A DNA stretch of 49,713 bases, taken from the sequence record NC_130088.1; one strand, given 5' to 3'. The stretch is from a phage. The position numbers and the translations under genes are program-made. This document shows, one piece after another, positions 41 through 47,741 of this stretch (the first letter of the stretch is position 1; the number at the start of each line of letters is the position of its first letter). Under the pieces are notes generated by a model. It did no database searches. It was not told the DNA's origin and was given only the letters and a program-made list of their open reading frames with translations.

Positions 41-46
41 GTGTCT

Positions 47-68
47 GTAATTTAGCTGTAATTTAGCT
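47..68 (+). repeat. Perfect tandem duplication of an 11-bp unit GTAATTTAGCT (x2) upstream of the small terminase gene
   Basis: Direct reading: 47-57 and 58-68 identical; a related single-copy context occurs near 14117. Confidence 0.8.
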
Positions 69-100
69 ATAATCATGCCTCAACAATGGAGGATTCTATT

Positions 101-6381: not shown

Positions 6382-6430
6382 CGTGCTAACACAAAAAACA
6401 CTTGAACGTTTAACAAAAAATGCTATATTA

Positions 6431-16257: not shown

Positions 16258-16306
16258 TTACATGTACAATGGCAGCACGTTTAAATAGCACAAAAGGTTA
16301 AAAGCT

Positions 16307-20135: not shown

Positions 20136-20487
20136 GTTCCATGATGTTCACAACTTAATCCGGCGTAAAATTGAAAACGTCTTGATAACAAAAAGAACAA
20201 ATGAAATATCTATATAATAACATACACTTAGAGTTTAATTATTATTATATATATCTATTTGTATTCTTCTTGTTTCTATTGTTCTCTATGGTTTGTGGTT
20301 GTTGTGTGTTTTGTATTGGTTGATGGTTATATATCACATGGTATGTATTTATATATGGTATGCGGCGTAAATGCGTGAACAATGTAACACAAAAACAACA
20401 ATCAGTAAAATCATAAACTTACGATGTGATTTTGTTGTCAGTGCCTACTTTGAACGTATGCAAAACAAAAAGAACACATAAAACATA

Positions 20488-20515
20488 TTGACTACATGAA
20501 ACATTCGCATATAAT
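20488..20515 (+). promoter_or_regulatory. Near-consensus sigma70 promoter TTGACT-16-TATAAT (early promoter A)
   Basis: Hexamers read directly; A-rich UP-like tract upstream; precedes the exonuclease gene. Confidence 0.7.
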
Positions 20516-20543
20516 GCAGACATACCAACGAGAGGATGACCAA

Positions 20544-21599
20544 ATGAGCGATTTTAAAGTTTACACCTTTGACCAGTTAACCAACGGTGAATATCACGAT
20601 CCGAAAGGCTGGGCGGCTGAATACGTTAGCGGTTCAAGCCTGGCAGAAATCTTTGCAAGTTGTCCGGCAGCATGGAAATACAGACCACGCGAGGAAAGCA
20701 AAGCGCTTGTTTTCGGTACGCAGTCACACACAAACTTCCAGAGTAGTGAGCTATTCGCAAAAGAGTACCGCAGAGCGCCAGCGCCGGAAGATTATGAAAA
20801 CCTGATTACGAGCCAGGCAGCATTGGCAGCGAAATTAAAATCTTTTGGCCTGACTGGTACAAGCGGTAAAACGTATCCAGATCTGATTAAGATGATGGTT
20901 GATTGTGGTGAGGATCTAAATGTGCAATGGCTCATTGAAATGATCGCAGAAAGCCAGGCGCGAGCGGATAACGTTGAATTGGTTCCGGCTAAAGATTACG
21001 ACGCTTGCGTTACCATGCGCCGCGTACTGGAAAGCATACCTGAACACAACGCTTGCATGAATAGCCCAACAGCACAACGCGAGCTATCAATTTTCGGCAC
21101 TATAAAAGGCGTGAAAGTCAAAGTAAGGCTTGACCATGTTGATATTTGCAAGGATGTGCTTGCAACGGTGATTTCCGGCTATGACGGTGAAGGGAATCCG
21201 GTTTATGAAACCACGCGATTTGATGAAGCGATTGTGATCACTGATTATAAAACAACGTCAAGCGCTAACCCGTCAGAGTTTGCAAGGCTGGCATTCAATC
21301 ACGGATACTACTTGAAAATGGCATTGCAGCATGACCTATTCAAGAAAGCGTATCCAGAAGAAACGCGCCCCGTAGTAGTCAGATTGCTGGCGCAGGAAAA
21401 GAAAGAGCCTTATTTACCGATTGCATACCGCATGACAGACGAACAATTGAAGATCGGACGTCTGCAATACATGAGCGTTATCAACCAGTTTGCAGAATGC
21501 CAGGCTAATGACGTTTGGCCTTCATATGCAAACGGTGAGCCGGAAATTGACCTGCAAACGCCTGATTGGGTACGCAGACAATACAAAGGTTTTTTATAA
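20544..21599 (+). CDS. Putative recombination exonuclease (PD-(D/E)XK-type)
   Basis: 351 aa; D..D(V) and ITDYKT motifs consistent with a PD-(D/E)XK nuclease; followed by Erf-like and SSB genes. Confidence 0.5.
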   Translation: MSDFKVYTFDQLTNGEYHDPKGWAAEYVSGSSLAEIFASCPAAWKYRPREESKALVFGTQSHTNFQSSELFAKEYRRAPAPEDYENLITSQAALAAKLKSFGLTGTSGKTYPDLIKMMVDCGEDLNVQWLIEMIAESQARADNVELVPAKDYDACVTMRRVLESIPEHNACMNSPTAQRELSIFGTIKGVKVKVRLDHVDICKDVLATVISGYDGEGNPVYETTRFDEAIVITDYKTTSSANPSEFARLAFNHGYYLKMALQHDLFKKAYPEETRPVVVRLLAQEKKEPYLPIAYRMTDEQLKIGRLQYMSVINQFAECQANDVWPSYANGEPEIDLQTPDWVRRQYKGFL

Positions 21600-21600
21600 A

Positions 21601-21642
21601 TAGCACTTTTTGCTAAAACAGCCATTCGATGCGTGGTATACT
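21601..21642 (+). promoter_or_regulatory. Conserved 19-bp box plus -10-like TATACT (class-2 promoter-like unit)
   Basis: TAGCACTTTTTGCTAAAAC, 21-nt gap, TATACT. Confidence 0.5.
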
Positions 21643-25541: not shown

Positions 25542-25582
25542 AATTTCACCTCATAGCATTTTTTGTTAAAATAGGTCATGTA

Positions 25583-26687: not shown

Positions 26688-27296
26688 TTAGCAATCAGTG
26701 CTATCGACGGAAATCACAACGCGTTTCTTCTGATTGGCTTCCTTTGCTTTGCGCCGTTCTTCTTTCGCCTTATCGCGTTCAGCTTTGCGCCGCGCTTTCT
26801 CCTTCTCGCGTTCTTCTGGACTCATAGACCGCAACGGATCGTAAGGCCGCACAAATCCTCTTGCTTCCGCCTCCTCTTTGGTTACAAATCGCATCAGCTT
26901 TCTGTTGCTGCAACGATTCTCTAATGGCTTGCCGTTATTATCAAATTTGATATCTGGACGGCAATATGAAGCGCGGAAGCCGTTAAAACCTTTGCGTCTG
27001 TAATCTTTCTGGATCAGTTCAGCGCCTTTAGTTGAAATCATGCCGCGCTCTTTCCATCCCCATACTGTTTTAAGGTTAACGCCAATTTCACGCGCCAGGG
27101 CAGCGCAACCGCCATAAGCGCTAACCACTTCATCAAGCCTAGCTTTTAATCCTGCCCTTACTTCTTCCTTTAGTACCAGATAACCGCTAACAGGTGCGCG
27201 GCGCTTCCTGTCTTTACCACGCCTTACGCCGTTGTTACCATTGATTGTGCGTTTGTCGATTTCTCCCGTTGAGGCCGCAATTTTGATTTCGCTCAT
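26688..27296 (-). CDS. HTH DNA-binding protein with basic Lys/Arg/Glu-rich C-terminal tail
   Basis: HTH-like segment GGCAALAREIGVNLKTVWGW; AGGTGA SD; divergent from helicase gene. Confidence 0.45.
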   Translation of the reverse strand: MSEIKIAASTGEIDKRTINGNNGVRRGKDRKRRAPVSGYLVLKEEVRAGLKARLDEVVSAYGGCAALAREIGVNLKTVWGWKERGMISTKGAELIQKDYRRKGFNGFRASYCRPDIKFDNNGKPLENRCSNRKLMRFVTKEEAEARGFVRPYDPLRSMSPEEREKEKARRKAERDKAKEERRKAKEANQKKRVVISVDSTDC

Positions 27297-27307
27297 ATTT
27301 TCACCTA

Positions 27308-27349
27308 TAGCACTTTTTGCTAAAACTATTGAGTAAGTTTGTGTATGAT
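27308..27349 (+). promoter_or_regulatory. Conserved 19-bp box plus TATGAT (class-2 unit) upstream of helicase
   Basis: TAGCACTTTTTGCTAAAAC, 21-nt gap, TATGAT. Confidence 0.5.
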
Positions 27350-29360: not shown

Positions 29361-29768
29361 ATGGTTACTGATAAAGGCGATTATCTGGAGTATTACGACA
29401 AATCAGATCCAGATGACAGAAAAGAGGAAGCGCACCAGGTTGATTCTTATTCATGGTTAACATATGAGTTTCCAATGTGGCTTGTTTGGCACACTAAAAA
29501 CGAAGGGAAGAAAACAATAGGCACAGCAGTAAAGGATCAGCAAGCAGGTGTAAAAAAGGGAGTAAGCGACATTCTAATCCTGACTGGTTTTATTGGCTGC
29601 AAATATGCATTCATTGCAATTGAGCTTAAACGAGCCAACAAGAAAGGAACTAAAGTAAGCCAGGAACAAAGGGAATTCTTGCGCCGCGTTAGGGAATGCG
29701 GAGGATTTGCCGCAGTATGCTATGGTGTAGATCAAGTAAAATTGGCTATCGCAGACGCTACAAAATAG
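29361..29768 (+). CDS. VRR-NUC domain nuclease
   Basis: 135 aa; D..IELK PD-(D/E)XK-like core; directly follows helicase. Confidence 0.55.
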   Translation: MVTDKGDYLEYYDKSDPDDRKEEAHQVDSYSWLTYEFPMWLVWHTKNEGKKTIGTAVKDQQAGVKKGVSDILILTGFIGCKYAFIAIELKRANKKGTKVSQEQREFLRRVRECGGFAAVCYGVDQVKLAIADATK

Positions 29769-29808
29769 CACTTTTTGTTAAAACAGGCGCGACGGAATGC
29801 GCCATAAT
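29766..29808 (+). promoter_or_regulatory. Conserved 19-bp box plus CATAAT (class-2 unit)
   Basis: Box starts at the TAG stop of the upstream gene. Confidence 0.5.
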
Positions 29809-30861: not shown

Positions 30862-31092
30862 ATGAGCATTCGATTAGCCGATCACATGAAATGGGATTTA
30901 TTTGTCGGTATGACAATTCGCTTACTTGATAAGCATGGTTATAACGATGATAAAATGGAGTTGATAAACTGCCTGGATATGACATTTGACGAAATCAAAG
31001 TTGCGCCTTTGTACATGTGGGAAAGAAAAATTGAGCACGACCTGATACAATACAAACGCAGAGAGGGCGCACGATTTTTCAATGTGAAATAG
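30862..31092 (+). CDS. Hypothetical protein
   Basis: 76 aa, overlapping start/stop with dam. Confidence 0.4.
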   Translation: MSIRLADHMKWDLFVGMTIRLLDKHGYNDDKMELINCLDMTFDEIKVAPLYMWERKIEHDLIQYKRREGARFFNVK

Positions 31093-31142
31093 CACTTTTT
31101 GTTAAAACCCGCTACGGCGGGTTTTGTATTATGTGCTTAACG
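31090..31142 (+). promoter_or_regulatory. Conserved 19-bp box plus hairpin plus TATTAT (class-2 unit)
   Basis: Box begins at the TAG stop; CCCGC..GCGGG hairpin in spacer. Confidence 0.5.
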
Positions 31143-34237: not shown

Positions 34238-34280
34238 ACTATACCCGATACAAGATCGGGTGTTTTAACAAAAAGTGCTA
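34238..34280 (-). promoter_or_regulatory. Conserved 19-bp box plus TATAGT (class-2 unit, minus strand)
   Basis: Box/gap/-10 read on minus strand; CATCGAAAC leader follows. Confidence 0.5.
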
Positions 34281-34475
34281 TTCGAATTTTCTTACGTGAA
34301 TAAGCAATTCACCATCTTGATTTGTCAGTTGATGCTCTTGATCTTCAAACGCTCTCATATCACTGTAAAGCAACAGCATTAGCGCATAGACAAAATCATC
34401 ATGCTGAATTTGCATTGCTGAACTTTCTTTCAAAATAAGATCTATCAAATGCTGGCTTGCTGAATAATTCTTCAT
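34278..34475 (-). CDS. Hypothetical protein (start uncertain)
   Basis: ORF overlapping the upstream gene end; may start at an internal ATG. Confidence 0.3.
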   Translation of the reverse strand: MKNYSASQHLIDLILKESSAMQIQHDDFVYALMLLLYSDMRAFEDQEHQLTNQDGELLIHVRKFE

Positions 34476-36401: not shown

Positions 36402-36444
36402 ATTATAACGGCAACATTCTACAGCCTTTTAGCAATTCGTGCTA
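36402..36444 (-). promoter_or_regulatory. Conserved 19-bp box plus TATAAT (class-2 unit, minus strand)
   Basis: Box contains the TAG stop of the upstream gene. Confidence 0.5.
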
Positions 36445-36690
36445 TTTGATCGGCTCAACCCTGGCTAATAACTTTCCGTCTATAATGCTATGACATTCAA
36501 GAGTTTTAGGATCGAATGCAAGCGAACGATGGAACGTATGACCAATCAGCAAATATGAATGCTTATCCCTGATGCGATAGACCGTTTCACCTTCCTTTAA
36601 TGACGATATCGCACTAAAAACAACCTTGTAACGATATTTTTGCATAGCCTCAGAACGGTGAGGAATGTAATCTTTTTCCGGTAAACTCAT
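36442..36690 (-). CDS. Hypothetical protein
   Basis: 82 aa. Confidence 0.4.
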   Translation of the reverse strand: MSLPEKDYIPHRSEAMQKYRYKVVFSAISSLKEGETVYRIRDKHSYLLIGHTFHRSLAFDPKTLECHSIIDGKLLARVEPIK

Positions 36691-37081: not shown

Positions 37082-37124
37082 ATTATGCCGGATACGTGAT
37101 CCGGCGTTTTAACAAAAAGTGCTA
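37082..37124 (-). promoter_or_regulatory. Conserved 19-bp box plus hairpin plus CATAAT (class-2 unit, minus strand)
   Basis: GCCGGAT..ATCCGGC hairpin in spacer. Confidence 0.5.
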
Positions 37125-37817
37125 TTTCTGATTTGCCAGGCATACAGCAAGCGCAAAGCCGCGCGGAGTGAGTGAGCGGATCAGCTTTGTTCGCTTAGAC
37201 TTGCCGCCGAGCTTTTGCCAGCCTGGATTGTTGTTCCCTGTTGGCAATACTGCGTTTGTATCCGGCATTACAAAGCCGTTACCCGTCCAAAGACAAGTTT
37301 TTTTGGTGTACGCATCGCGAGCGGGAATGATTTCAGGAAAGTGAGGATGTTTATCATCTTCCGGCAACAGACCTCCAAACGCGCAAGGATGAAAGATAAA
37401 ATCAGGTTGCCGCCACATTGACGACAGAACACTAACAGGATTCTCAATCATATATGGAACGTTAAACCGATCCGCAATATTGGCAGCAATCTTTGCCGTT
37501 TCAACCGCCTTTTTCTGGAAGTCTGGATCACGTTCACGCTTTGCTGCAAAGTGACGCGATCCGCTAACAGCTAAATCAGTGCATGGAGGGAATGCAATAA
37601 TAAAATCTGGAGTGCCAAAGACGCGCATCATTGCGTTATGCTGGAATGATAATCCGATCCACTCATTCAAATAAACGATGTTGGGATGAGTCACGCGCAC
37701 TGATTGGTAATCACCATGATCAGCACCGTCGAAATTAAAGCACAGCACTTTGTGACCACGTTCAGCCCACGGCAACGCAGCATAACCAGAACCATCAAAT
37801 AGTGAGAAAATAAGCAT
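37122..37817 (-). CDS. Putative DNA cytosine-5 methyltransferase-like protein
   Basis: FDGSG (motif I-like), FPPC (PC catalytic motif-like), ENP (ENV-like); start set at internal ATG with AAAGGA SD; unusually short for this family. Confidence 0.4.
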   Translation of the reverse strand: MLIFSLFDGSGYAALPWAERGHKVLCFNFDGADHGDYQSVRVTHPNIVYLNEWIGLSFQHNAMMRVFGTPDFIIAFPPCTDLAVSGSRHFAAKRERDPDFQKKAVETAKIAANIADRFNVPYMIENPVSVLSSMWRQPDFIFHPCAFGGLLPEDDKHPHFPEIIPARDAYTKKTCLWTGNGFVMPDTNAVLPTGNNNPGWQKLGGKSKRTKLIRSLTPRGFALAVCLANQK

Positions 37818-38015
37818 GTTTAAATCCTTTCTGTATGACCTTGTAAGGCGTTTTGTTTGTAGGTGTGACAATCGTATTAGTTACGGCCTGAAATCGCGAC
37901 ATAATGCGAAACAGGCCGCTATTTTTTACTTACAGAATGGGCATGTTGTTTTATCACCGCTTCCGCCGTGTTTTGGACAGCAAATTTTTTCGATAGGTGT
38001 CATTTTAAATACTCC

Positions 38016-38258
38016 TTAGAATGGGAAACAGCGCTTGCAAGATGGATCGAAGTTACAACCGCAATCATTGATTATTGCGTTAGGATCAGCAAGCATCACG
38101 CTACTTTCTTGATCCATATCCATAGCGCCTAATGCGTCATCAAGCGTTATTTCAAGATAGGCAACTTTAAGCGCCCATTCCTTGTTGAGTCCAGCCGCCT
38201 CCGCTTCATGTAGGCGAGCAAAGAAAGCATCTTGAACCATATCAACCCCACTTCTCAA
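38016..38258 (-). CDS. Hypothetical protein
   Basis: 80 aa. Confidence 0.35.
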   Translation of the reverse strand: MRSGVDMVQDAFFARLHEAEAAGLNKEWALKVAYLEITLDDALGAMDMDQESSVMLADPNAIINDCGCNFDPSCKRCFPF

Positions 38259-38463
38259 TAAACATGCTCATTTCGTCAATCATCGCGTAAGCATCGCTTT
38301 CAGTCATGCGACGGATTCTTCCGCCTGGGTGTTCGCCAACAGCGTAACCAGTTTTTACGCGGGTAATCGTTAACTGATGGAATCCAGAATCGCGATCCAT
38401 TTTCAAAACTACTTTCCCGTGAGCTTTGACAATGTTCATGATGGATTCAGTTTTCAGTTTCAT
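38242..38463 (-). CDS. Hypothetical protein
   Basis: 73 aa. Confidence 0.4.
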   Translation of the reverse strand: MKLKTESIMNIVKAHGKVVLKMDRDSGFHQLTITRVKTGYAVGEHPGGRIRRMTESDAYAMIDEMSMFIEKWG

Positions 38464-38494
38464 TTTTGATTCTCCATTTTGTTTATGTGAAAGT

Positions 38495-38537
38495 ATGATA
38501 CCAATCAGAGCGTTATCGTTTTTAGCAATTCGTGCTA
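38495..38537 (-). promoter_or_regulatory. Conserved box (GAATTGC variant) plus TATCAT (class-2 unit, minus strand)
   Basis: Box overlaps the last codons (NSTNC*) of the upstream small ORF. Confidence 0.5.
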
Positions 38538-38689
38538 TTTACGGCGATAAACGGATATCCTGTTAAATCTGCATTTCTATAACGTGCAGACCTAACCCAA
38601 CAGCCGCCTTTGCTCATAATTAAAGCGTTTTTATGGCGAATGTTCACGCGGTAAATTCTTCCGGTTTTTATGTTTTTGAAGTAGGTCAT
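38522..38689 (-). CDS. Small hypothetical protein (55 aa, below ORF-track cutoff) ending NSTNC
   Basis: TGATG-type coupling to the upstream gene; hand-translated; C-terminus encoded by the conserved box. Confidence 0.35.
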   Translation of the reverse strand: MTYFKNIKTGRIYRVNIRHKNALIMSKGGCWVRSARYRNADLTGYPFIAVNSTNC

Positions 38690-38919
38690 AATTTAACCTC
38701 ATGATACTCTATAAACTCTTGCACATATGCGCATTCGCGCGGCGACTCCTGGCCTTTTATCACCTCACAGCCACCATTAAACAGATAGCAGTGCTGGCAA
38801 AGGTTGCCACCTGCGTTTTCCTCAGCGATCTGAATTCCGGTACACAAACCGCCACCAAACCTATGAGGAAAATCGTAAGCCTGGCAGCGGCACGTTGCTT
38901 GATTCCGCTTACGTTTCAT
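38686..38919 (-). CDS. Small cysteine-rich (zinc-binding-like) protein
   Basis: 77 aa with about 8 Cys in CxC / CxxC arrangement. Confidence 0.4.
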   Translation of the reverse strand: MKRKRNQATCRCQAYDFPHRFGGGLCTGIQIAEENAGGNLCQHCYLFNGGCEVIKGQESPRECAYVQEFIEYHEVKL

Positions 38920-39200
38920 TAGATGTTCTCGCTAATAAACTGGATAACCTGGCGAAGATGTTTTTCATCTTTAATTAATGCTGGCAATTCTTCCATAACT
39001 TCTTTTTTAAGATAAATGTTTGCATTCCAGGTGAATGAGCCATCACCATTTACGCGGTAAGAGCAAAGCCATTCGCAATCATTATCAGATTCCCAAATGC
39101 ACAGCGTTTCAAATTCTTCAAACTTGTTGTAACCCGTTTCAATGCTTAACTCAATGCCACGTTTGCCAGCGAAGTTAGTAGTTGTTTTTGATACCATCAT
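38919..39200 (-). CDS. Hypothetical protein
   Basis: 93 aa. Confidence 0.4.
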   Translation of the reverse strand: MMVSKTTTNFAGKRGIELSIETGYNKFEEFETLCIWESDNDCEWLCSYRVNGDGSFTWNANIYLKKEVMEELPALIKDEKHLRQVIQFISENI

Positions 39201-39232
39201 TTTAAAATTCTCCGGTTCGTTTCGATGAATGC

Positions 39233-39275
39233 ATTATGCCAAAACAAACCGGATCGCTTTTAACAAAAAGTGCTA
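39233..39275 (-). promoter_or_regulatory. Conserved 19-bp box plus CATAAT (class-2 unit, minus strand)
   Basis: Box/gap/-10, CATCGAAAC leader. Confidence 0.5.
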
Positions 39276-39377
39276 TTTAATTAAAATACGAATACCTTTT
39301 CGCACGCTTTCCGTCGCCTCCGTAATGGTCATTAGCAACAGCAAGAATCCAAGCGTTAGGAATAAAAAATAGCTTCA

Positions 39378-39572
39378 TCAATCACTCTCCATGACAATTA
39401 CAGGCTCCAGGCGCTCAAGCACCACTTTGAAATCGGAGTAAAAAGTAGGGCGACGTTTTGTTAATTCCTCATATGTATCAGTTGCCAGGCAAGCGCGATC
39501 ACCTTCATAGCACACAACTCGCTTACCATTTGCGCGACTGATTGCAACGACGCGATAAGTATTATTGATCAT
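39378..39572 (-). CDS. Hypothetical protein
   Basis: 64 aa. Confidence 0.35.
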   Translation of the reverse strand: MINNTYRVVAISRANGKRVVCYEGDRACLATDTYEELTKRRPTFYSDFKVVLERLEPVIVMESD

Positions 39573-39805
39573 TTCATCACCTCAATTGAATAAATACTTT
39601 CAACTCCTGGCGCGTATAACCGATCTCCATCTTCAGTTATGCAAAGACAAAGGGCAAGGCCGCGATTGTCTGAAATATGCAAGTCATTTTGTCTATCCAT
39701 CAAAATTTCATATTCGCGATCTTCATCAAAGCGCCAAACGCTTAACATGCACTTTCCAGATGATTTAACTTTTACTTTCTTTCCGGCGAAATTTAAACGA
39801 CTCAT
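39569..39805 (-). CDS. Hypothetical protein
   Basis: 78 aa. Confidence 0.35.
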   Translation of the reverse strand: MSRLNFAGKKVKVKSSGKCMLSVWRFDEDREYEILMDRQNDLHISDNRGLALCLCITEDGDRLYAPGVESIYSIEVMK

Positions 39806-40020
39806 TGCGCCACCTCCACAGTTTCAAATACGGTATTGAATGCCAGAAGTTTAAATTTCTTGCCAGGCTCAACCACTGCGATATTCCAGGTAATGCCGCC
39901 GTGATATGCAACCATATCATCAATATCAACAGTAACCTCAGTACCTTTTTTGAACAATCCTTTTTCGTGGCTCGCATCGCGTACAGTAACCACAGTTTCG
40001 AATTGAGTTTGAATTTCCAT
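39802..40020 (-). CDS. Hypothetical protein
   Basis: 72 aa. Confidence 0.4.
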   Translation of the reverse strand: MEIQTQFETVVTVRDASHEKGLFKKGTEVTVDIDDMVAYHGGITWNIAVVEPGKKFKLLAFNTVFETVEVAQ

Positions 40021-40051
40021 CGTTAATCTCCTGATTGGTTTCGATGGGGTA

Positions 40052-40094
40052 ATTATATCAAGATACCCCGATCCGGTTTTAACAAAAAATGCTA
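40052..40094 (-). promoter_or_regulatory. Conserved 19-bp box plus TATAAT inside a hairpin loop (class-2 unit, minus strand)
   Basis: GGGGTA..TACCCC stem around the -10. Confidence 0.5.
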
Positions 40095-40095
40095 T

Positions 40096-40530
40096 TTACA
40101 GCCATTCGCCGGAAACAATGAAATCAGTGAAATCGTCATGATCCAAAATGCTGTGATAGCCAGTGCAATAATCATTTTTAACCATGTTACCACGCAAACG
40201 CACATAATCATCCTTTCGATCCGTAATCCAACGAATAAAGCGAGCGTTACGTTGTGGTATCGTTCCGGCGTAAGCCTCTTTGAATCCAATGTGTGCGATG
40301 AATGCCACAAAGCGGATTTGCAAGCCTGGATTGTCTTTCTTTGCCTCGTTAACCAGGTCGCGGAAGTTTTCACGCGTTGGCTTTACCGGAACCAATTCGC
40401 CTAACTCGATCATGCGGTTGAAGTCTGAAATGCTGGAATATGATTGCATAAACAGCCCATCGCTACCAAACATCACAACTCCGTTTTCGATGAAGTAAGT
40501 TTGTCCGTTGTATTTGTTTGTGTATTTCAT
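40096..40530 (-). CDS. Hypothetical protein
   Basis: 144 aa from internal ATG with GAGG SD. Confidence 0.45.
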   Translation of the reverse strand: MKYTNKYNGQTYFIENGVVMFGSDGLFMQSYSSISDFNRMIELGELVPVKPTRENFRDLVNEAKKDNPGLQIRFVAFIAHIGFKEAYAGTIPQRNARFIRWITDRKDDYVRLRGNMVKNDYCTGYHSILDHDDFTDFIVSGEWL

Positions 40531-40561
40531 CGTGAATTCCTCAGTTAGTTTCGATGAAGTA

Positions 40562-40604
40562 ATCATAGCAATTCGTGACTGATTGGTTTTAACAAAAAGT
40601 GCTA
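40562..40604 (-). promoter_or_regulatory. Conserved 19-bp box plus TATGAT (class-2 unit, minus strand), first unit of the leftward operon
   Basis: Box/gap/-10, CATCGAAAC leader. Confidence 0.5.
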
Positions 40605-40613
40605 TTCATGCAG

Positions 40614-40643
40614 TAGACCGATTGGTCTAGACCGTTTGGTCTA
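40614..40643. promoter_or_regulatory. Operator-like composite palindrome TAGACC-gatt-GGTCTAGACC-gttt-GGTCTA
   Basis: Three GGTCTA half-sites in alternating orientation; a fourth GGTCTA at about 41086. Confidence 0.4.
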
Positions 40644-40700
40644 ATGAACGCATCGTTTTGTGTATCGAACGCATTCATGATCCTGTTACGTGATCGTTAT

Positions 40701-40781
40701 ATGATCAGATGATGATTGATGTGTGAGATTTTGTGATTGAAATTGATTTGATTTGATTAGATTTGAGTAGTGAGTGAGTAG
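40701..40781. repeat. Iteron-like array of short direct repeats (GATT / TGATTGA / GTGAGT units) in AT-rich DNA
   Basis: Direct reading; no ORF. Confidence 0.5.
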
Positions 40782-41247
40782 AAATAATCACACCTTGCCG
40801 ATCAGTGAAAACTTTTCCCGCAAAACATCACTCCAGGCTACGCGCTGTTATCTTCCGTTCATGGGTGTTCACAAATCTATCCGGCGTAGTTCTCCGACGG
40901 TTCTATGTGTTAGCCACACAAAAAGAACAAAATAAAACTCTATATAATAATAATTAAAACAGTAAGTTATCTATATATATGTATTTATTTGTTTCTATAC
41001 TGTTTCTAATGTTCCATATGGTTAGTGGTGGGTGATATATTGTTGATGGTGGTATTTGGTTAATATTTAGCCTATTGCGCCTGGTCTAGTGGTGGATTGA
41101 GAAAAATATATTTATATATAGGAATCCGCGAAAATTCATGAACGTATGAACAGCCAAAGAACGCGTTTTCAATTTCAAGTAAAACATTCACTTACGCTGA
41201 AAATTTGTTCCACTATAGGTATGGAACGTAAGCACACAAAAAACTAC

Positions 41248-41276
41248 TTGACGAGAACAAATGGCGGCGATAATAT
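41248..41276 (+). promoter_or_regulatory. Sigma70-like promoter TTGACG-17-TAATAT (early promoter B)
   Basis: Hexamers read directly; leader and SD paralogous to promoter A. Confidence 0.65.
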
Positions 41277-41312
41277 GCCACAACGAACTAACCAACAGGA
41301 GGATAACCAATC

Positions 41313-41762
41313 ATGGCAACTACCAAAGAGTTTTGCGACAGCTTGCGTGAACTGGCGAAGAAGTTAGCAAGCGGAGAGCTTGATAATTACATCATTGCCG
41401 ATGCTCTTATCGAGGACAATCTCGACGAGCAAGACCGGAAGAAGGTCAACGCCTCATACATTCGCACGATCATGAATCGCGTCCCTGACGTGAAGGAGAT
41501 CGGAACGGTTTCAATTACTCGCACTGATCCGGTTGAGGAAGCGCCAGGGTTTAAGGTGGCAATCAACCGCGAGGCAAAGCGACAGGTATTCACAAAAAAT
41601 GATATTCCTGCACTGGAAAAGCGGATCGGTGAGCGAATCGCCAAGCGACTGCTAAACACAATGCCAAATATCACGGATCTGGAAGGTGAACAACTCCAGG
41701 GCGCGGCAATAGGAATTAAACGTTATCAGGATCTGATTAAGTCATTTGCAACGGGGGAATAA
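41313..41762 (+). CDS. Hypothetical protein
   Basis: 149 aa, SD AGGAGG. Confidence 0.5.
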   Translation: MATTKEFCDSLRELAKKLASGELDNYIIADALIEDNLDEQDRKKVNASYIRTIMNRVPDVKEIGTVSITRTDPVEEAPGFKVAINREAKRQVFTKNDIPALEKRIGERIAKRLLNTMPNITDLEGEQLQGAAIGIKRYQDLIKSFATGE

Positions 41763-41765
41763 ACC

Positions 41766-42014
41766 ATGAATTACGAAACCAAGGAAAATATTGCAAAGGT
41801 AATTATTGGCTCATTGGGTAAAGTTGAGCTAACCCAAAAGCAATGGGAGGAAATACAGGAAATTCACCGTAACATGATCTCGCCGCGAATCATCGTTAGA
41901 TCGAAAGGCAATGAGTTTAAATATGTTGCTGGTTCGCCAGCACTTAAAACGACAGTTAACGTGCTACTCAATAGCGGTGAAGAATTCGAAGTTGTCAAGG
42001 AGCGCGTAGATTGA
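41766..42014 (+). CDS. Hypothetical protein
   Basis: 82 aa. Confidence 0.45.
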   Translation: MNYETKENIAKVIIGSLGKVELTQKQWEEIQEIHRNMISPRIIVRSKGNEFKYVAGSPALKTTVNVLLNSGEEFEVVKERVD

Positions 42015-42110
42015 AAGCATTCGCCTTTGTCGCTGCAATGTGGTGTGTTGTTATTGATAGTACTGGCGTGGCGCTGGTTGTGTTAGGTCTGATTTTGTTG
42101 GGGGTGTTTG

Positions 42111-42224
42111 ATGAATAAGAAACTTTTAGATCATGCCGTGGTGTTCTTTATCGCTGCTGCTGGATTTTCGCTGTTGTCAATTGCTTTTTCAATCCTTGCT
42201 TTTGCCGTGTCAATGCTGAAATGA
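42111..42224 (+). CDS. Tiny hydrophobic peptide (37 aa, single predicted TM helix; below ORF-track cutoff)
   Basis: GGGGTG SD; hand-translated MNKKLLDHAVVFFIAAAGFSLLSIAFSILAFAVSMLK. Confidence 0.3.
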   Translation: MNKKLLDHAVVFFIAAAGFSLLSIAFSILAFAVSMLK

Positions 42225-42247
42225 CGGATTACATCCTGATTGGTAAA

Positions 42248-42290
42248 TAGCACTTTTTGTTAAAACTCAATTGGGGTGGTTTGGCATAAT
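42248..42290 (+). promoter_or_regulatory. Conserved 19-bp box plus CATAAT (class-2 unit)
   Basis: Box/gap/-10, CATCGAAAC leader. Confidence 0.5.
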
Positions 42291-42321
42291 TACCCCATCG
42301 AAACGAAACGAGGAAAACACA

Positions 42322-42480
42322 ATGACTACATTAATCACCTGGGAACACGAAGCAAGCCAGCCAGTAACCCGCGAGTTTGAAACTCTTAGCCAGGCTTATC
42401 TGCTGGCTGCTAACGGTGGTTATTACAAGGCGCAAGTCATTGATGAAATTGGGGTGATTGTTTATGAGTTTAAAGCGTGA
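42322..42480 (+). CDS. Small hypothetical protein
   Basis: 52 aa from ATG after GAGG SD. Confidence 0.35.
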   Translation: MTTLITWEHEASQPVTREFETLSQAYLLAANGGYYKAQVIDEIGVIVYEFKA

Positions 42481-42664
42481 TGTGGCCTACCAGAGTGCAT
42501 ACGGTACGCGCCAATACAAATGGGACGGCGTGAACGTTTGGACTCGCGGATTCCCTGGAGAGATCTGGAAGCAAGCAATTGGCTGGCCTCAACCGAACAT
42601 GACAAAAAATGATTTGGAATACTACGTTAACAAGGGTGAATTTAAGGAGTGTGAAAATGTTTGA
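42464..42664 (+). CDS. Hypothetical protein
   Basis: Overlapping start with upstream gene. Confidence 0.35.
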   Translation: MSLKRDVAYQSAYGTRQYKWDGVNVWTRGFPGEIWKQAIGWPQPNMTKNDLEYYVNKGEFKECENV

Positions 42665-42926
42665 ACTGAAACGCGTAACTGTTGAGATCCTGAATGATGG
42701 CTCTTACGATAGAATGAAACACTTAACCTTCCCGATCCGCATTGAGAATTGCATTGATTACGGTATTGAAGTTGGCATGGTTGACGTTCCTCTTGATGCA
42801 CTTATCGCGGCTGGCTATGACAAAGAGAAGGCCAATGTGCTGATATACCTGATAGCTATGAAAGCGACACACATTTTCCGTTCACCTATGGTGAATGCCG
42901 GATTGTTGATTGAGGTTATAAAATGA
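42657..42926 (+). CDS. Hypothetical protein
   Basis: 89 aa, SD AGGAGTG. Confidence 0.4.
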   Translation: MFELKRVTVEILNDGSYDRMKHLTFPIRIENCIDYGIEVGMVDVPLDALIAAGYDKEKANVLIYLIAMKATHIFRSPMVNAGLLIEVIK

Positions 42927-42987
42927 GCAGTTGGCACAATGAACATGTAATGCAATTCTACCGCCACAGAATAAAGAAAATGATCAA

Positions 42988-43030
42988 TAGCACGAATTGC
43001 TAAAACTAAATCATGGGCATTTGTTATAGT
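42988..43030 (+). promoter_or_regulatory. Conserved box (GAATTGC variant) plus TATAGT inside a hairpin (class-2 unit)
   Basis: GGGCA..TGCCC stem around the -10. Confidence 0.5.
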
Positions 43031-43064
43031 GCCCATCGTTGAGTTAAGCAAAGGAGAATCAACA

Positions 43065-43637
43065 ATGTTAAAAGCGAATGAAATCAACTTCCCGATCATC
43101 TTTAATTTTCCTGCTGATTATACAATGAAGAACATAACATTCGAAAATGATTCAGGCAATGGCACCTGGGCCAATGGGAATAAAAGCGGATTGCCGCTAT
43201 CATATTTCATTAAACAGCATAATGCTCAAAACCCATACAACACAGAGGGTAAGCCATATTTTTACAAAATGGCGGCAAAGAAAGAGAAAAAGCGAGAAGA
43301 TAACGATCTGTTAGATGCGCTGAAATATTTAAATATCAGGACTGGCCATGTTAATTTAAACGGTGCTGTATTTACTGCGTCAGTCGGATCTAAAGATTAC
43401 GATTACATTTGCAAGGTTGAAAATATGCCAGTTGGCGCAGCGCTTTTAGGTGTTCAGCGTGAAAGTGGCGAATGGGACGAGTTGAAATTTAAACCTCGCC
43501 GCATTGAAGTACACGACGATGTTATTTGCTTGCTTTCCGGTTATTCTGGAGGTTACAAGAGCGGCAATAATTACGGCGCTGAAATCAACATTAAGCGCGG
43601 CACTAACGTAAAAATCAAAAACAGCACGAATTGCTAA
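43065..43637 (+). CDS. Hypothetical protein ending NSTNC
   Basis: 190 aa, SD AAAGGAG; C-terminus encoded by the conserved box. Confidence 0.5.
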   Translation: MLKANEINFPIIFNFPADYTMKNITFENDSGNGTWANGNKSGLPLSYFIKQHNAQNPYNTEGKPYFYKMAAKKEKKREDNDLLDALKYLNIRTGHVNLNGAVFTASVGSKDYDYICKVENMPVGAALLGVQRESGEWDELKFKPRRIEVHDDVICLLSGYSGGYKSGNNYGAEINIKRGTNVKIKNSTNC

Positions 43638-43664
43638 AACAGAATTTTGGGCTTGCGGTATAGT
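43622..43664 (+). promoter_or_regulatory. Conserved box (GAATTGC variant) plus TATAGT (class-2 unit)
   Basis: Box/gap/-10. Confidence 0.5.
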
Positions 43665-43696
43665 AAGCCCATACCAAACAACGAGAGGATCACAAA

Positions 43697-44023
43697 ATGG
43701 AATTAGCACGTAACGCGGTTTATGGCTTACACCTTAAAGGCGGCAAAGGCTCAACTTATGCGCACCTTTTTCATGTTAACGAGCGTGGTCAGATGGATAT
43801 CGCAATGTTTGTTGACCAAAGGGTTAAGAAAGGTGGTGAGGGTGATTGTGATACATTCCGACCGGATTTAGTTGAATACGATCACACATACAGTCATGAT
43901 CACTGGATTGGTCACGGTCGCAAGTTTGTAATGGTTAATAGCCACGTTACCGACACAAGCAAAATCACTGCATCGCAGTATAAGCGCATGGCTCGCAAGG
44001 TTATGAAGTTAGAAGCGCAATAG
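43697..44023 (+). CDS. Hypothetical protein
   Basis: 108 aa, SD GAGAGGA. Confidence 0.45.
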   Translation: MELARNAVYGLHLKGGKGSTYAHLFHVNERGQMDIAMFVDQRVKKGGEGDCDTFRPDLVEYDHTYSHDHWIGHGRKFVMVNSHVTDTSKITASQYKRMARKVMKLEAQ

Positions 44024-44063
44024 CACGAAATGTTAAGCGGCCATGTGTGCTGATTGGTACAAT
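44021..44063 (+). promoter_or_regulatory. Degenerate conserved box plus TACAAT (class-2 unit)
   Basis: TAGCACGAAATGTTAAG, 22-nt gap, TACAAT. Confidence 0.4.
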
Positions 44064-44095
44064 GACCGCATCAACCAACAATAGAGGATAGAAAA

Positions 44096-44203
44096 ATGTC
44101 AAAAGAATCAATTAAGCAGTTTCTGAAATACGGCTCTATGATTGTGCTCGCTACCGTTGTGCTGGCTGGCATAGCTTACAGTGTCATCGAATTTGTGGGG
44201 TAA
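44096..44203 (+). CDS. Tiny membrane peptide (35 aa; below ORF-track cutoff)
   Basis: SD AGAGGA; hydrophobic core MIVLATVVLAGIAY. Confidence 0.35.
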   Translation: MSKESIKQFLKYGSMIVLATVVLAGIAYSVIEFVG

Positions 44204-44206
44204 TGG

Positions 44207-44749
44207 ATGTTTAAGATCGAATTGTGGGGGAAGGAATACGCTAATCACTACGTTGCAACAAAACAGCGTTTCGTGATTTTCGACCTGGATGGCACATTGT
44301 CAAATGGTGAGCACCGCTTGCACCTGTTGCCAACGGTTGATTTGCATCTTACTGAAAGCTGGAGTGAGTTTAATCGCGCCGCAAAGGATGATTCACCATT
44401 CATGGATAACATTTCCGTGTGCAACGCCATGTTTGACGCAGGATACCTGGTTATCATCCTAACTGGTCGAAGCGATGAAGTCGAAACGGAAACGCGATCA
44501 TGGTTGGCTGAAAACGGCGTTTCTTTCGATTGGCTGATTATGCGCCGCTCAAGCGATAATCGGAAAGATACCGTAATCAAAGAGGAAGTTTTACGGACTA
44601 TCGGCCTGGAGAATATCGTTGCGTGTTGGGATGACTCGCCAAACGTTATTGCGCACTTGCGCGGCATGGGATTGACTGTTTACCAGGTTATTGACTACGG
44701 CGACCAGTTGCACGATCACTTAAAGTCTCACGGAGTTGAAAAGCTATGA
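44207..44749 (+). CDS. HAD-superfamily phosphatase (possible polynucleotide 3'-phosphatase or nucleotidase)
   Basis: HAD motif I FDLDGT, motif II ILTGRS, motif IV WDDSPN. Confidence 0.7.
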   Translation: MFKIELWGKEYANHYVATKQRFVIFDLDGTLSNGEHRLHLLPTVDLHLTESWSEFNRAAKDDSPFMDNISVCNAMFDAGYLVIILTGRSDEVETETRSWLAENGVSFDWLIMRRSSDNRKDTVIKEEVLRTIGLENIVACWDDSPNVIAHLRGMGLTVYQVIDYGDQLHDHLKSHGVEKL

Positions 44750-44922
44750 AACTAAAATGCATCGGTGAATATCCAGGTTTTACGGTTGGCAACATGTACA
44801 ATGCAACAATCGGAATGGATCACACATTTTGTTATGAATGCTATGTTGTCATTGATGATGATGGTGATTCACGTAGCATTGATTTCGAAACAGAGGATTT
44901 TATAGAGGATCGTTATCTGTGA
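44746..44922 (+). CDS. Small hypothetical protein (58 aa; below ORF-track cutoff)
   Basis: ATGA coupling to upstream gene; acidic C-terminal half. Confidence 0.3.
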   Translation: MKLKCIGEYPGFTVGNMYNATIGMDHTFCYECYVVIDDDGDSRSIDFETEDFIEDRYL

Positions 44923-45019
44923 TTGAAAACTATGATCCAATGGCGTTTGCCTGGGGCGTTGGTGCTTTCGTGGTGGCGGTTGTGATTTGCTTATGGGATA
45001 TAAACCGGATGGATAGATA

Positions 45020-45205
45020 ATGCTTACTGCTTTTTTAATTTTGATTGTCATTATGCTTTACGTTTGCGGCGCTTTCCTGATGCGAGCGCTACTAAAAGAG
45101 GCTGACGCTGATGATAAGGATAGTTGGAAGCCGATTATTTTATGGCCTGGATATATCATCGTGCCGATTTACGAACTAATCCGCGATGGTGAGTTTAAGT
45201 GGTAA
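45020..45205 (+). CDS. Small membrane protein
   Basis: 61 aa, N-terminal TM helix. Confidence 0.4.
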   Translation: MLTAFLILIVIMLYVCGAFLMRALLKEADADDKDSWKPIILWPGYIIVPIYELIRDGEFKW

Positions 45206-45206
45206 A

Positions 45207-45249
45207 TAGCACTTTTTGCTAAAACTTGCTAAGGCACATTTGATAAAGT
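45207..45249 (+). promoter_or_regulatory. Conserved 19-bp box plus TAAAGT inside a hairpin (class-2 unit)
   Basis: GGCACA..TGTGCC stem. Confidence 0.5.
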
Positions 45250-45282
45250 GTGCCTTGTCGAGACAAGCAAGGAGAATGACAC

Positions 45283-45579
45283 ATGAAAGTTTTTATGATT
45301 AAACAGTTTGGAAGCACTGCATATTATATCATCAACGACGAGGGAGATATTTTCATTTCGAACTATCCGACTCTTGAAGTTGGGCGTCATTTCAGAAGTT
45401 CAGTTGACGAAAAAGGAATTATCAATATGGTTGAGTGTGGAATGATGGTTCCCTTCAATAAAGAAGCGGCTGAATTATTCCAGCAATCACAGATCCGAAA
45501 GCGCAACCGCAATATTATTTGCTTTACCGTCGCAATGGTTGTAACTGTTGGCTCAATCTTACTTGGAGTGTGGGCGTGA
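45283..45579 (+). CDS. Hypothetical protein with C-terminal TM segment
   Basis: 98 aa, SD AAGGAG. Confidence 0.45.
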   Translation: MKVFMIKQFGSTAYYIINDEGDIFISNYPTLEVGRHFRSSVDEKGIINMVECGMMVPFNKEAAELFQQSQIRKRNRNIICFTVAMVVTVGSILLGVWA

Positions 45580-45761
45580 TGAATCTTGATAATAAAGTTG
45601 AAACGCAAAAGACGATTGATTATCTGCGTGACCTTGCCGACAAGCTGGAGAATAACCAGATTCATTTAAATGAGATCGTTATTGAATCGCGCAACGTTTG
45701 TTGGAACGTTGAAGAAGAAACATTGACAATGCAAGTTTTAAAGGCGGTAGACAATGGCTAA
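45579..45761 (+). CDS. Hypothetical protein
   Basis: 60 aa from ATG overlapping upstream stop. Confidence 0.35.
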   Translation: MNLDNKVETQKTIDYLRDLADKLENNQIHLNEIVIESRNVCWNVEEETLTMQVLKAVDNG

Positions 45762-46329
45762 AATTATCATCCTTAACGCGCCTCCAGGTGCTGGTAAAGA
45801 CACAATCGGCAAGATGATTTCTTTCTATTCGCCTGGTGAGCAATGCCGCATCATTAGCTTTAAAGAGCCAATGTTTGACATTGCATTAGCTATCCTGGGC
45901 AAAGAGAACTATAAGCGCTTCATGTTGGCTTATGATGACAGAGAGCAGAAAGAAAGGCCGCAAACATTCCTGATGGGTATGTCACCGCGTGAGTTCATGA
46001 TCTGGATTAGCGAGGATGTAATCAAACCTAAATTCGGCAAGGATTATTTCGGCGTAAGGTTTAACCAGAAAGTAAAAGAGTGTGATGCTCCTGTTGTTTG
46101 CACTGATGGTGGTTTTCCAGATGAAATTATCGCTCTAATCAATGCTGGTAATGAGGTTAAGCTATGTCGATTGCATCGCGACGGGTTCACGTTTGCAGGT
46201 GATAGCCGCAACTACATTCGAATCAATCCATATTACCAGAAAAACGGATATAGTGAGCACGATTATAAATTGGTTGATAAGCAACCGAATGTAACTGTAA
46301 AGGAAATTATTAGCGATCACCTTAAATAG
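45754..46329 (+). CDS. P-loop nucleotide kinase (dNMP-kinase-like)
   Basis: Walker A PPGAGKDT near N-terminus; size about 190 aa. Confidence 0.55.
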   Translation: MAKIIILNAPPGAGKDTIGKMISFYSPGEQCRIISFKEPMFDIALAILGKENYKRFMLAYDDREQKERPQTFLMGMSPREFMIWISEDVIKPKFGKDYFGVRFNQKVKECDAPVVCTDGGFPDEIIALINAGNEVKLCRLHRDGFTFAGDSRNYIRINPYYQKNGYSEHDYKLVDKQPNVTVKEIISDHLK

Positions 46330-46369
46330 CACGAATTGCTAAAACTTGCGCAAGGCCATTTGTTATAGT
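46327..46369 (+). promoter_or_regulatory. Conserved box (GAATTGC variant) plus TATAGT inside a hairpin (class-2 unit)
   Basis: GGCC..GGCC stem around the -10. Confidence 0.5.
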
Positions 46370-47203: not shown

Positions 47204-47701
47204 ATGAAAGCTAAAAATGATTTTTATAACTACCTGACAAAAGGCCGTGACTATACCGTTTTGAATAGCATAGATACTCTTTACCTGGTTGTTGCTGATA
47301 ATGGCGTTAGAGTTTGGCTTGATAAAACTCTTTTCGAAAGCGAGCACCTAAGTAACGCAAAGCGGATCGCAGATGAAGCAAGCGCATTAGCAGAGCGTGA
47401 ACGAATTCGCGATATAGTAGCGGAGCAGGTTAGAAATTCATGTTCACCTGGTGGCGATATCTTCAAATCAATGCGCGGTGAAATGACGGTTGGAATTCAA
47501 GATCGCGTAATTTCAAAGTCAGTTGATTCTGTAATTGAGAATGCGCGATTCAATGCGTTGATTAACTCAGAGCATAACGAATACGTCAAAGTATTAGAGC
47601 AACTGCGTGAAGTGCTGCGAGTGCCGGAAGGTGAAAATATAGTGACTCATGCAAAGGTTGTAAGAGCGTTGGCTGATGCGCTGATTGGCCTGCAAAAATA
47701 G
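47204..47701 (+). CDS. Hypothetical protein
   Basis: 165 aa, SD AAGGAG. Confidence 0.5.
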   Translation: MKAKNDFYNYLTKGRDYTVLNSIDTLYLVVADNGVRVWLDKTLFESEHLSNAKRIADEASALAERERIRDIVAEQVRNSCSPGGDIFKSMRGEMTVGIQDRVISKSVDSVIENARFNALINSEHNEYVKVLEQLREVLRVPEGENIVTHAKVVRALADALIGLQK

Positions 47702-47741
47702 CACTTTTTGTTAAAACTTCCGCGAGGGCATTTGTTAAAGT
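47699..47741 (+). promoter_or_regulatory. Conserved 19-bp box plus TAAAGT inside a hairpin (class-2 unit)
   Basis: Box starts at the TAG stop of the upstream gene. Confidence 0.5.

Follow-up and report, generated by a model that had tools for sequence, protein, structure and literature searches.

The window examined here is the whole 49,713-nucleotide (nt) stretch of phage DNA in sequence record NC_130088.1, which over positions 38000-46000 is 100% identical by megablast to Citrobacter phage vB_CfrD_Devorator (OL539461), a member of the Drexlerviridae, Tempevirinae, genus Tlsvirus, to which phage TLS also belongs; the same search matched about 80 T1-like relatives. Its genes are punctuated by copies of a 21-nt repeat, termed the box in the following. 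Three of these genes, gp50 (38522-38689, minus strand), a gene for a Stp-like peptide that carries no annotation in OL539461 (42923-43003, plus strand) and gp66 (43065-43637, plus strand), end within a box in such a way that their products share the C-terminal residues NSTNC. The original prediction had noticed these endings from the letters alone and took them as a sign of gene cassettes which moved together with a regulatory element. The analysis points instead to a box that carries stop codons of its own and into which tightly packed genes run.

The box, with the consensus aAATAGCAC-N4-TGnTAAAAc in Devorator, matches the published 21/22-bp direct repeat of phages T1, Stevie and TLS (consensus aaATAGCACnnnTTGnTAAAA / VWATAGCAYKWWTTGYTAAAAV), and the element itself is therefore already known; in this respect the NSTNC endings are largely ordinary and represent no new kind of biology. 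Stevie contains 16 copies of the 22-bp repeat, an asymmetric sequence found mainly between genes and pointing in the direction of transcription, whose role was left open (PMC4319613). In TLS, 18 intergenic 21-nt repeats precede start codons by about 76 nt, and their function was posed as an open question, for which stoperator, enhancer and UP-like ideas were offered (PMC11447400). T1 has about 20 copies, and T1-like phages overall have 16-21 per genome. The Devorator box shares with these repeats the A/T/G sub-variants, the orientation with transcription and the distance of about 76 nt to start codons. The T1, Stevie and TLS papers, in which the repeats are called intergenic, do not describe a fixed 21-nt phasing to an extended -10, upstream stops inside the repeat, translated tails or a gene-dependent hairpin.

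Matches to the box are far in excess of chance in the window, with 7 matches to its 18-mer at up to 3 mismatches (0.06 expected) and 25 to the degenerate box (2.9 expected). By our count, 19 copies show a common promoter-like geometry and 3 are atypical, so that the earlier count of 18 needs a small correction. All 19 have the orientation of the downstream gene, whose ribosome-binding site (RBS) and ATG follow 70-85 nt after the start of the box. The box is asymmetric and consists of two highly conserved half-motifs, with ATAGCAC invariant; the variable part defines a G-variant (GAATTGC), an A/G-variant, and variants with TTTTTGT or TGATTGC. Across the family, 699 unique copies from 81 Drexlerviridae loci yield the pooled consensus aAATAGCACtttTTGcTAAAac.

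Stop codons are built into this motif: a TAG at positions 3-5 (TAG3), a TAA at positions 16-18 (TAA16), and leading A's which complete a stop begun upstream (TA-A or T-AA, the hyphen marking the division). When the stop position was tabulated relative to every copy in Devorator, as the original prediction had proposed, all 16 co-oriented upstream genes that run into a box were found to end inside it, 8 by TAG3, 4 by TA-A and 4 by TAA16. Three of the 19 copies have no upstream gene stopping in the box, namely the operon-start copies 27306 and 40606 and the copy at 42246 (copies are named here by their first position in their own orientation). The five open reading frames (ORFs) previously listed as ending at the box TAG (29361-29768, 30862-31092, 43697-44023, 45754-46329 and 47204-47701) do so, and three further minus-strand genes, with their ends at 34278, 36442 and 37122, stop in the same way; box TAGs account for 8/10 of the TAG stops of the genome (Fisher p = 9e-6). 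The pattern is a property of the whole family. Among upstream ORFs of at least 40 amino acids (aa) in the 81 loci, 661/686 (96%) stop within box positions -2 to +18, including 408 at TAG3, 80 at TAA16, 68 at TA-A and 46 at T-AA. T1 exhibits the same pattern, its ST66 protein ending in NSTNC and its regulator ST23 in NSIFS within the respective boxes.

Both TAG and TAA are conserved at about 2 bits over all copies, though they serve as stops in only 59% and 12%, respectively, and both also persist unaltered at 27306 and 40606, the operon-start copies that lack an upstream gene. Because they are conserved alike in copies used and unused as stops, the TAG and TAA belong to the DNA motif rather than to the genes. 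That coding ends overlap it so consistently thus follows from stops built into an equally conserved untranslated motif together with extreme compaction, and cassette movement is not needed to account for it. Genes adjoining a box should accordingly be allowed ends inside it during annotation, and the box illustrates neatly how a regulatory DNA motif can impose arbitrary C-terminal residues on unrelated proteins.

The three NSTNC translations proved correct on recomputation. The codons AAC AGC ACG AAT TGC TAA apply as such to the copy at 43620 only, since the other two read AAT AGC, in which the first codon also specifies Asn. The three proteins are indeed unrelated: pairwise blastp aligns only the terminal 5-8 residues, and they belong to separate PHROGs. 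A fourth read-through gene, absent from the earlier list, is gp29, which ends in SVDSTDC via the variant GATAGCACTGATTGCTAA. In two of the four, the family profile stops short of the tail. The profile phrog_7116 ends at residue 186 of gp66. The peptides of the T4 Stp family are activators of PrrC and inhibitors of restriction (EcoprrI). With its 26 aa and a conserved N-terminal stretch, the product of 42923-43003 agrees with that family, as seen in its profile match and in its alignment with RB32 Stp, and is judged on these grounds to be a genuine T4 Stp homologue; a pnk gene, as in T4, is also present in Devorator. Its similarity stops at residue 18 against the T4-type Stp of RB32 (ending KTKGVFGRQ) and at residue 23 against that of Akira (ending RIKAIINSYEV, with no box), such that the last 3-8 residues differ from those of the two homologues and are dictated by the box in Tlsvirus. 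A Stp homologue has already been noted for Stevie (PMC4319613) and for TLS.

The tails vary among orthologues. When the 666 upstream proteins were clustered into 101 families, 18/101 contained read-through members, and, of the 45 families that had three or more members, 18 varied in stop class between orthologues. The gp50 family comprises 13 read-through and 3 TAG3 members, that of gp66 comprises 13 read-through, 2 TAG3 and 2 TA-A, that of the regulator gp29 comprises 20 TAG3 and 8 read-through, and the kinase family comprises 39 TAG3 and 7 TAA16. In the kinase of phage Brooksby, deletion of a single T converts the ending DHLK into DHLNSTNC. Of the frames, that of read-through is used least, being the majority state in 4/45 families compared to 15 expected (chi-square p = 3e-7), and the variable residue of the tail tracks the box variant, N with GAATTGC, F with TTTTTGT and D with TGATTGC. 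The NSTNC tail is thus an incidental by-product of compaction, tolerated rather than favoured and evolutionarily labile.

The suggestion that the box is a regulatory type of element is supported by what lies downstream of it. Among the 699 copies, pooled with no filter, 472 have a TAnnnT hexamer placed exactly 21 nt downstream of the 18-mer, compared to at most 45 for any other offset, and a TGn extension is present in 291. The spacing in Devorator is 21 nt in 17/19 copies and 20 nt in 2/19, mostly with the TGn. Beyond the box the consensus continues as aAATAGCACtttTTGcTAAAac-N8-gg...t.tG.tAtaaT..ccccAt..aaa..aaa, followed by the RBS. A TGn and a TAnnnT at a fixed position are characteristic of the sigma-70 extended -10 promoter, which does not need a -35 hexamer, and the position expected for the latter reads TAAAAC (2/6 match). 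Because the -10 hexamer is at a fixed 21-nt distance, the box would extend from about -51 to -31 and would constitute the upstream element of a repeated extended -10 promoter. In its TGn-TAnnnT core independent of a -35, and in an upstream element at a fixed distance in the -40 to -60 zone, the arrangement is akin to extended -10 promoters with UP or -43 A+T-rich elements, as found among the strong early promoters of T5 and T4. UP elements consist of degenerate A/T tracts recognised by the C-terminal domain of the RNA polymerase alpha subunit (alpha-CTD), whereas the box has the invariant GC-containing ATAGCAC plus TGnTAAAA.

Two other assignments were considered and rejected. The TTGYTA within the box is too far from the -10 (22 bp) to be a true -35, the 17-bp position being occupied by TAAAAC. 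Sigma-54 promoters have the form TGGCAC-N5-TTGCW, with invariant GG and GC 10 bp apart; the box reads TAGCAC-N3-TTGCT, with AG in place of GG and a spacing 2 nt too short. A scan for canonical TTGACA-N16-18-TATAAT promoters showed no overlap with any box promoter, and between 38000 and 48000 canonical sigma-70-like sites reach only about half of their number in shuffled sequence (13 versus 25 +/- 4.9), a deficit that would fit either counter-selection of stray promoters or a dependence on promoters of the box type.

The most probable explanation, to which we would assign a probability of roughly 70%, is that NSTNC arises where tightly packed genes run into a stop-containing promoter box, which forms part of a composite gene-end/promoter joint between which recombination occasionally takes place. 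The box would make up the upstream half, from about -51 to -31, of roughly 19 nearly identical promoters of the host RNA polymerase, which lack a usable -35. The -10 would be followed by a conserved ccccAT start region, an A-rich leader, the RBS and the next ATG, about 76 nt after the box. Tight packing would drive the preceding gene into the box, where TAG3-5, TAA16-18 or the leading A's close whichever frame comes in, since the box holds both stops as well as the A's that complete TA-A or T-AA. A frame which misses the TAG would then read AAT AGC ACG AAT TGC TAA, giving NSTNC, or NSTFC and DSTDC in other variants. The question left in the TLS paper of 2024 (PMC11447400) thereby becomes testable, as transcription would be predicted to start about 7 nt after the phased -10, with the box in place of a -35.

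Several points weigh against this explanation. The promoter function is deduced from sequence alone, and no transcription start data, transcriptomes or promoter assays for T1-like phages were found in the literature searched. The TG of the extended -10 is present in only about half of the copies, and some of the -10 hexamers are weak (TAAAGT). The ATAGCAC half-motif contains GC and is too strongly conserved for a classical UP element. The recombination breakpoints described below are not enriched at boxes when compared with a random gene-junction null (18/57 junctions with boxes, p = 0.35). Finally, the three atypical copies, 16284-16304 (+), 25552-25572 (+) and 6407-6427 (-), adjoin the starts of late genes and lack the promoter geometry, which may hint at a protein-binding site that is not purely promoter-related. 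One of them ends 2 nt before the ATG of the tail-fibre gene gp22, its AAAAGG supplying the RBS; another is in reverse just upstream of the RBS of the tail-fibre gene gp27, after the primase terminator; and the third, also reversed, precedes the major capsid gene, its complement reading TGCTATATT and a TTGAAC being found 16 nt upstream. Copies occur at the three equivalent places of T1 (25020, 34901 and 15087).

The alternative that fares best, though we regard it as unlikely, is that the box serves mainly as an operator for a phage DNA-binding protein, either for silencing in the manner of the stoperators of mycobacteriophage L5 or as an activator or enhancer site, with the link to the -10 being secondary. 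The asymmetric motif, its constant orientation with transcription and its two half-motifs are in line with such a role, as are the atypical late-gene copies, found in both orientations and conserved between T1 and Devorator; stoperator and enhancer ideas are, moreover, already in print (PMC4319613, PMC11447400). A candidate reader is also at hand, since boxes flank the putative helix-turn-helix (HTH) regulator gp29 on both sides, copy 26705 being read through at its 3' end and the divergent copy 27306 abutting its 5' end, and the T1 counterpart of gp29, ST23 (58% identity), likewise lies between boxes, at 35996 and 36443. Like L5 stoperators, the boxes are numerous short asymmetric sites that all point the same way with respect to transcription and lie within short intergenic gaps or at their margins. 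Yet stoperators bind the repressor by which a temperate phage maintains lysogeny, and they show no phasing to a -10, while Devorator is virulent, no integrase, lysogeny module or site-specific recombinase being among its annotated genes, and the invariant 21-nt phasing of the box is that of a promoter element and not of a roadblock. In part this alternative overlaps with the promoter interpretation, in that an activator site at -51 to -31 would still be a promoter element. As for what might read the box as part of a promoter, we would prefer a sequence-specific factor, with gp29 as the best candidate, over a plain UP-element contact by alpha-CTD; the invariance of ATAGCAC and the atypical late-gene copies speak for such a factor. 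Another protein of possible interest is gp58 (DUF7174), encoded behind the only canonical early promoter, which has a weak winged-helix-like fold and is absent from T1; sequence searches of the PDB with gp58 and gp29 gave no match.

A second component of the joint is a hairpin in the 42 nt that follow the box. Folding of this segment gave z < -2 relative to shuffled sequence in 14/19 Devorator copies, and the family-wide mean z was -2.6, compared to -0.2 for random 42-mers. The hairpin depends on the upstream gene: where a gene ends in the box, 76% of copies have z < -2 and the mean minimum free energy (MFE) is -12.2, while copies with no upstream gene show 21% and -6.9, close to the -6.6 of random 42-mers (Mann-Whitney p = 1e-12). 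The stem sequences differ between copies, and the hairpin lies just before or across the -10. Since it is enriched only where there is an upstream gene, the hairpin belongs to the upstream transcript, and we infer that it acts as a terminator, stabiliser or processing signal of that RNA, squeezed into the unconstrained spacer of the promoter. The 3' hairpin of the upstream gene would thus occupy the part of the promoter that is free in sequence, and stop, hairpin and promoter would form one composite joint; the prediction that the hairpins are carried by the upstream transcripts is open to experiment.

The same observations could be taken to mean that the box acts on RNA together with the hairpin, in termination, processing by RNase E/III or translation termination, with the stop codons being part of its function. 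Stops fall in the box in 96% of cases, a stable hairpin occurs only with an upstream gene, and true terminators with a T-run follow the copies at 26705 and 31088. This possibility appears improbable, given that the box is fully conserved at 27306 and 40606, operon starts that have neither upstream gene nor hairpin, that it is phased to the -10 while the position of the hairpin floats, and that most hairpins lack a U-tract and an Rfam search returned no RNA family match. The features of the joints are collected in Table 1.

Table 1. Box copies, associated promoter and hairpin features, and genes with read-through tails (coordinates of the window; z for the segment following the box or for the hairpin; homology edges refer to relatives of Devorator)
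Feature	Coordinates	Strand	Details
Box	21599..21619	+	exonuclease VIII gene (20496-21599) ends TA-A on box position 1
Box variant GATAGCACTGATTGCTAAAAA	26685..26705	-	gp29 stop TAA16; next hairpin with T-run, terminator-like, z = -6.0
gp29	26688..27296 (annotated to 27365)	-	putative HTH transcriptional regulator; phrog_2856, weak YdaS HTH match
Box TATAGCACTTTTTGCTAAAAC	27306..27326	+	start of helicase operon, divergent from gp29; no upstream gene, no hairpin (z = 0.1)
Box	29764..29784	+	endonuclease gene 29361-29768 ends at TAG (positions 3-5)
Box	31088..31108	+	gp34 (30862-31092) ends TAG3; homology edge in Punny, ZerotoHero and DanielBernoulli
Box	34262..34282	-	gp42 ends TAG3
Box, G-variant	36426..36446	-	gp45 (36442-36690) ends TAG3; same variant, here not NSTNC
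Box	37106..37126	-	gp47 (37122-37871) ends TAG3
-10 TATCAT with TGg	38495..38500	-	21 nt after 18-mer of box 38539; putative gp49 promoter
Box, G-variant AATAGCACGAATTGCTAAAAA	38519..38539	-	gp50 stop is the TAA at positions 16-18
gp50	38522..38689	-	55 aa, ends FIAVNSTNC; last 5 codons and stop are box positions 1-18; phrog_16768
Box	39257..39277	-	gp53 ends TA-A; homology edge in DanielBernoulli
Box AATAGCATTTTTTGTTAAAAC	40076..40096	-	gp57 ends TA-A; upstream gene replaced in 5 relatives, crossover inside or adjoining box
Box	40586..40606	-	start of leftward early arm; no upstream gene, no hairpin (z = 0.3)
Box	42246..42266	+	sole copy with an upstream gene (gp61, ends 42224) stopping before the box; -10 TGgCATAAT, 42285-42290
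Stp-like peptide	42923..43003	+	26 aa, ends MINSTNC; phrog_6763, E = 9e-15, residues 1-23
Box, G-variant AATAGCACGAATTGCTAAAAC	42986..43006	+	Stp stop TAA16
Hairpin ATGGGCA/TGCCCAT	43009..43040	+	encloses extended -10 TGtTATAGT (43025-43030); MFE -13.8, z = -3.6
gp66	43065..43637	+	190 aa from ATG, AAGGAG RBS, ends VKIKNSTNC
Box AACAGCACGAATTGCTAAAAC	43620..43640	+	gp66 stop TAA16; homology edge in at least 4 relatives
Hairpin GGGCTTGCG/...AAGCCC	43648..43671	+	encloses -10 TATAGT (43659-43664); MFE -15.8, z = -4.5
Box, A/G-variant AATAGCACGAAATGTTAAGCG	44019..44039	+	gp67 (43697-44023) ends TAG3
Box	45205..45225	+	gp70 (45020-45205) ends TA-A
Box, G-variant	46325..46345	+	kinase gp73 (45754-46329) ends DHLK at TAG3
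Box	47697..47717	+	gp78 (47204-47701) ends TAG3

The claim that gene cassettes moved with the box holds in part, and the box does form a true boundary between segments that are exchanged. In a blastn comparison with 13 Tlsvirus genomes, 35 distinct indel or replacement events were identified between 28 and 49.7 kb, of which 8 have both edges in blocks reaching from a box to the next ATG and 8 have one edge there; the remaining 19 have none. Eleven homology edges lie within 2 nt of the 5' edge of a box, at copies 31088, 39277, 40096, 43620 and 44019, and every junction overlap of more than 20 nt (45-86 nt) includes the box. DanielBernoulli lacks gp66, the gap falling exactly between boxes 42986 and 43620, and an extra gene of 58 aa with its own box is inserted at 43620 in Punny, ZerotoHero and Brooksby. 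At 40096 the crossover is inside the box; for 31088, one pair has it at the edge of the box and a second pair close to the ATG. Edges fall in the box blocks in 24/70 cases compared to 9.7% under a uniform null (p = 2e-8), an excess which is not seen relative to gene junctions. The box joints are thus used for exchange but are not demonstrably preferred, and no hot-spot is claimed. Given the 45-86 nt of similarity between joints and a gene set which includes exonuclease VIII (a RecE-like exonuclease), a recombinase and SSB, homologous recombination between repeated joints would occasionally add, delete or swap the genes between them.

Insertions at junctions that carry no box are found in the relatives CF1 (L007, 12654-13133 and 18269-18766) and Brooksby (L006, 20687-20884), one example from CF1 being an HNH homing endonuclease inserted at window position 31532/31546; a box is thus not needed for the gain of a gene. 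Box-to-box deletions and insertions, and homology edges placed exactly at 5' box edges, could also suggest a site of site-specific recombination or mobility, comparable to the attC of integrons, by which cassettes are actively moved. We consider this very improbable, because no integrase or site-specific recombinase is annotated, the crossovers are spread over the interval between box edge and ATG, inside the 45-86 nt that are held in common, as is typical of homologous recombination, and more than half of the events involve box-less junctions. An attC-type cassette system was rejected on the absence of both an integrase and a fixed crossover point.

A closer parallel is offered by the promoter-early stem-loop joints (PeSLs) of T4-type phages (PMC2839356, PMC4122927). 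These, too, are repeated joints between small early genes which combine a promoter with a stable stem-loop, the latter corresponding to the 14/19 Devorator copies with z < -2; they bound the segments that close relatives have gained, lost or replaced, the crossovers falling between the -10 and the ATG, as the Devorator joints do in part of the 35 events, and for both systems recombination through short homologies by machinery of the phage itself is proposed. PeSLs contain canonical TTGACA-N17-TATAAT promoters and are associated with mini-circles, and their hairpins were shown to terminate. The Devorator joint, known from its sequence, has no -35, a unique upstream box, stops inside the element and hairpins inside the promoter, most of them with no U-tract, and shares no sequence homology with PeSLs. 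In function it would resemble PeSLs most closely, but it is not a member of the PeSL family.

Hardly credible, finally, is a selected C-terminal peptide motif (a Cys tag, or a targeting or degradation signal) whose coding constraint partly conserves the box: tails of the form N/D-S-T/I-x-C do occur in four Devorator proteins and 18 protein families across the Drexlerviridae, and the Tlsvirus Stp copies are all 26 aa long, the length of T4-type Stp, and end in NSTNC, but the nucleotides concerned show equal conservation in the 88% of copies that leave them untranslated, orthologues flip between TAG3 and read-through (once by a single-base deletion), the read-through frame is under-represented, the box variant sets the tail residue, and the profiles of gp66 and Stp end before the tail.

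A more far-reaching version of the promoter-joint interpretation, which we put forward only tentatively and consider doubtful as it stands, is that the box is the recognition site of a dedicated factor, gp29/ST23 or a host protein, that replaces the -35 at some 20 extended -10 promoters across the Drexlerviridae within a family-wide plug-and-play joint. Were this so, any incoming ORF would be terminated, insulated and provided with a following promoter, and recombination of the RecE/RecT type would shuffle the early genes; the joint would then be a siphophage counterpart of the T4 PeSLs with a new promoter class.

With respect to the annotation of OL539461, the GTG start given for gp66 (43029) falls in the promoter of box 42986, within both its -10 hexamer and its hairpin; for its position inside that hexamer it is probably wrong, and the ATG at 43065 with its AAGGAG RBS is the better placement. 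The minus-strand gp62 (region 42131-42253), which overlaps gp61 and the box at 42246, is probably spurious. The missed 26-aa Stp gene and promoter-internal starts such as the gp66 GTG are of practical relevance for annotation. The GenBank record is 1 nt shorter than the window, whose coordinates are those of the record plus 6 up to about 20 kb and plus 7 beyond; the offset changes between about 20007 and 21008, within or close to the non-coding region that precedes the exonuclease VIII gene.

Additional non-coding features were observed outside the joints. Upstream of terS (window 20-100) lies a strong terminator, AACCCGCcttGCGCGGGTTTTTTT, followed by a tandem GTAATTTAGCT x2 running into TATAAT, which may represent a late promoter or a pac-region signal; at the corresponding place T1 has a box copy immediately before the terS RBS (8361). 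A non-coding segment of about 700 nt (40607-41312) separates the two divergent early arms and diverges most among the relatives. A palindrome around GTCTAGACC lies at 40604-40653, and the segment holds short repeats of the gatttgatt type, stretches of very high AT content carrying inverted repeats (40971-40990 / 41102-41121) and, as its sole canonical-looking promoter, TTGACG-17-TAATAT at 41248, ahead of gp58. The segment may serve as an origin or as a control region for the early genes. A 34-nt direct repeat (20176-20209 and 20453-20486, 79% identical) is found in the gap that separates the tail-fibre genes from the exonuclease VIII gene. About 115 nt of the early intergenic segment (40918-41034) show 75-80% identity to the relatives' counterpart of this 20.2-kb gap, and the two large non-coding regions therefore have a sequence element in common.

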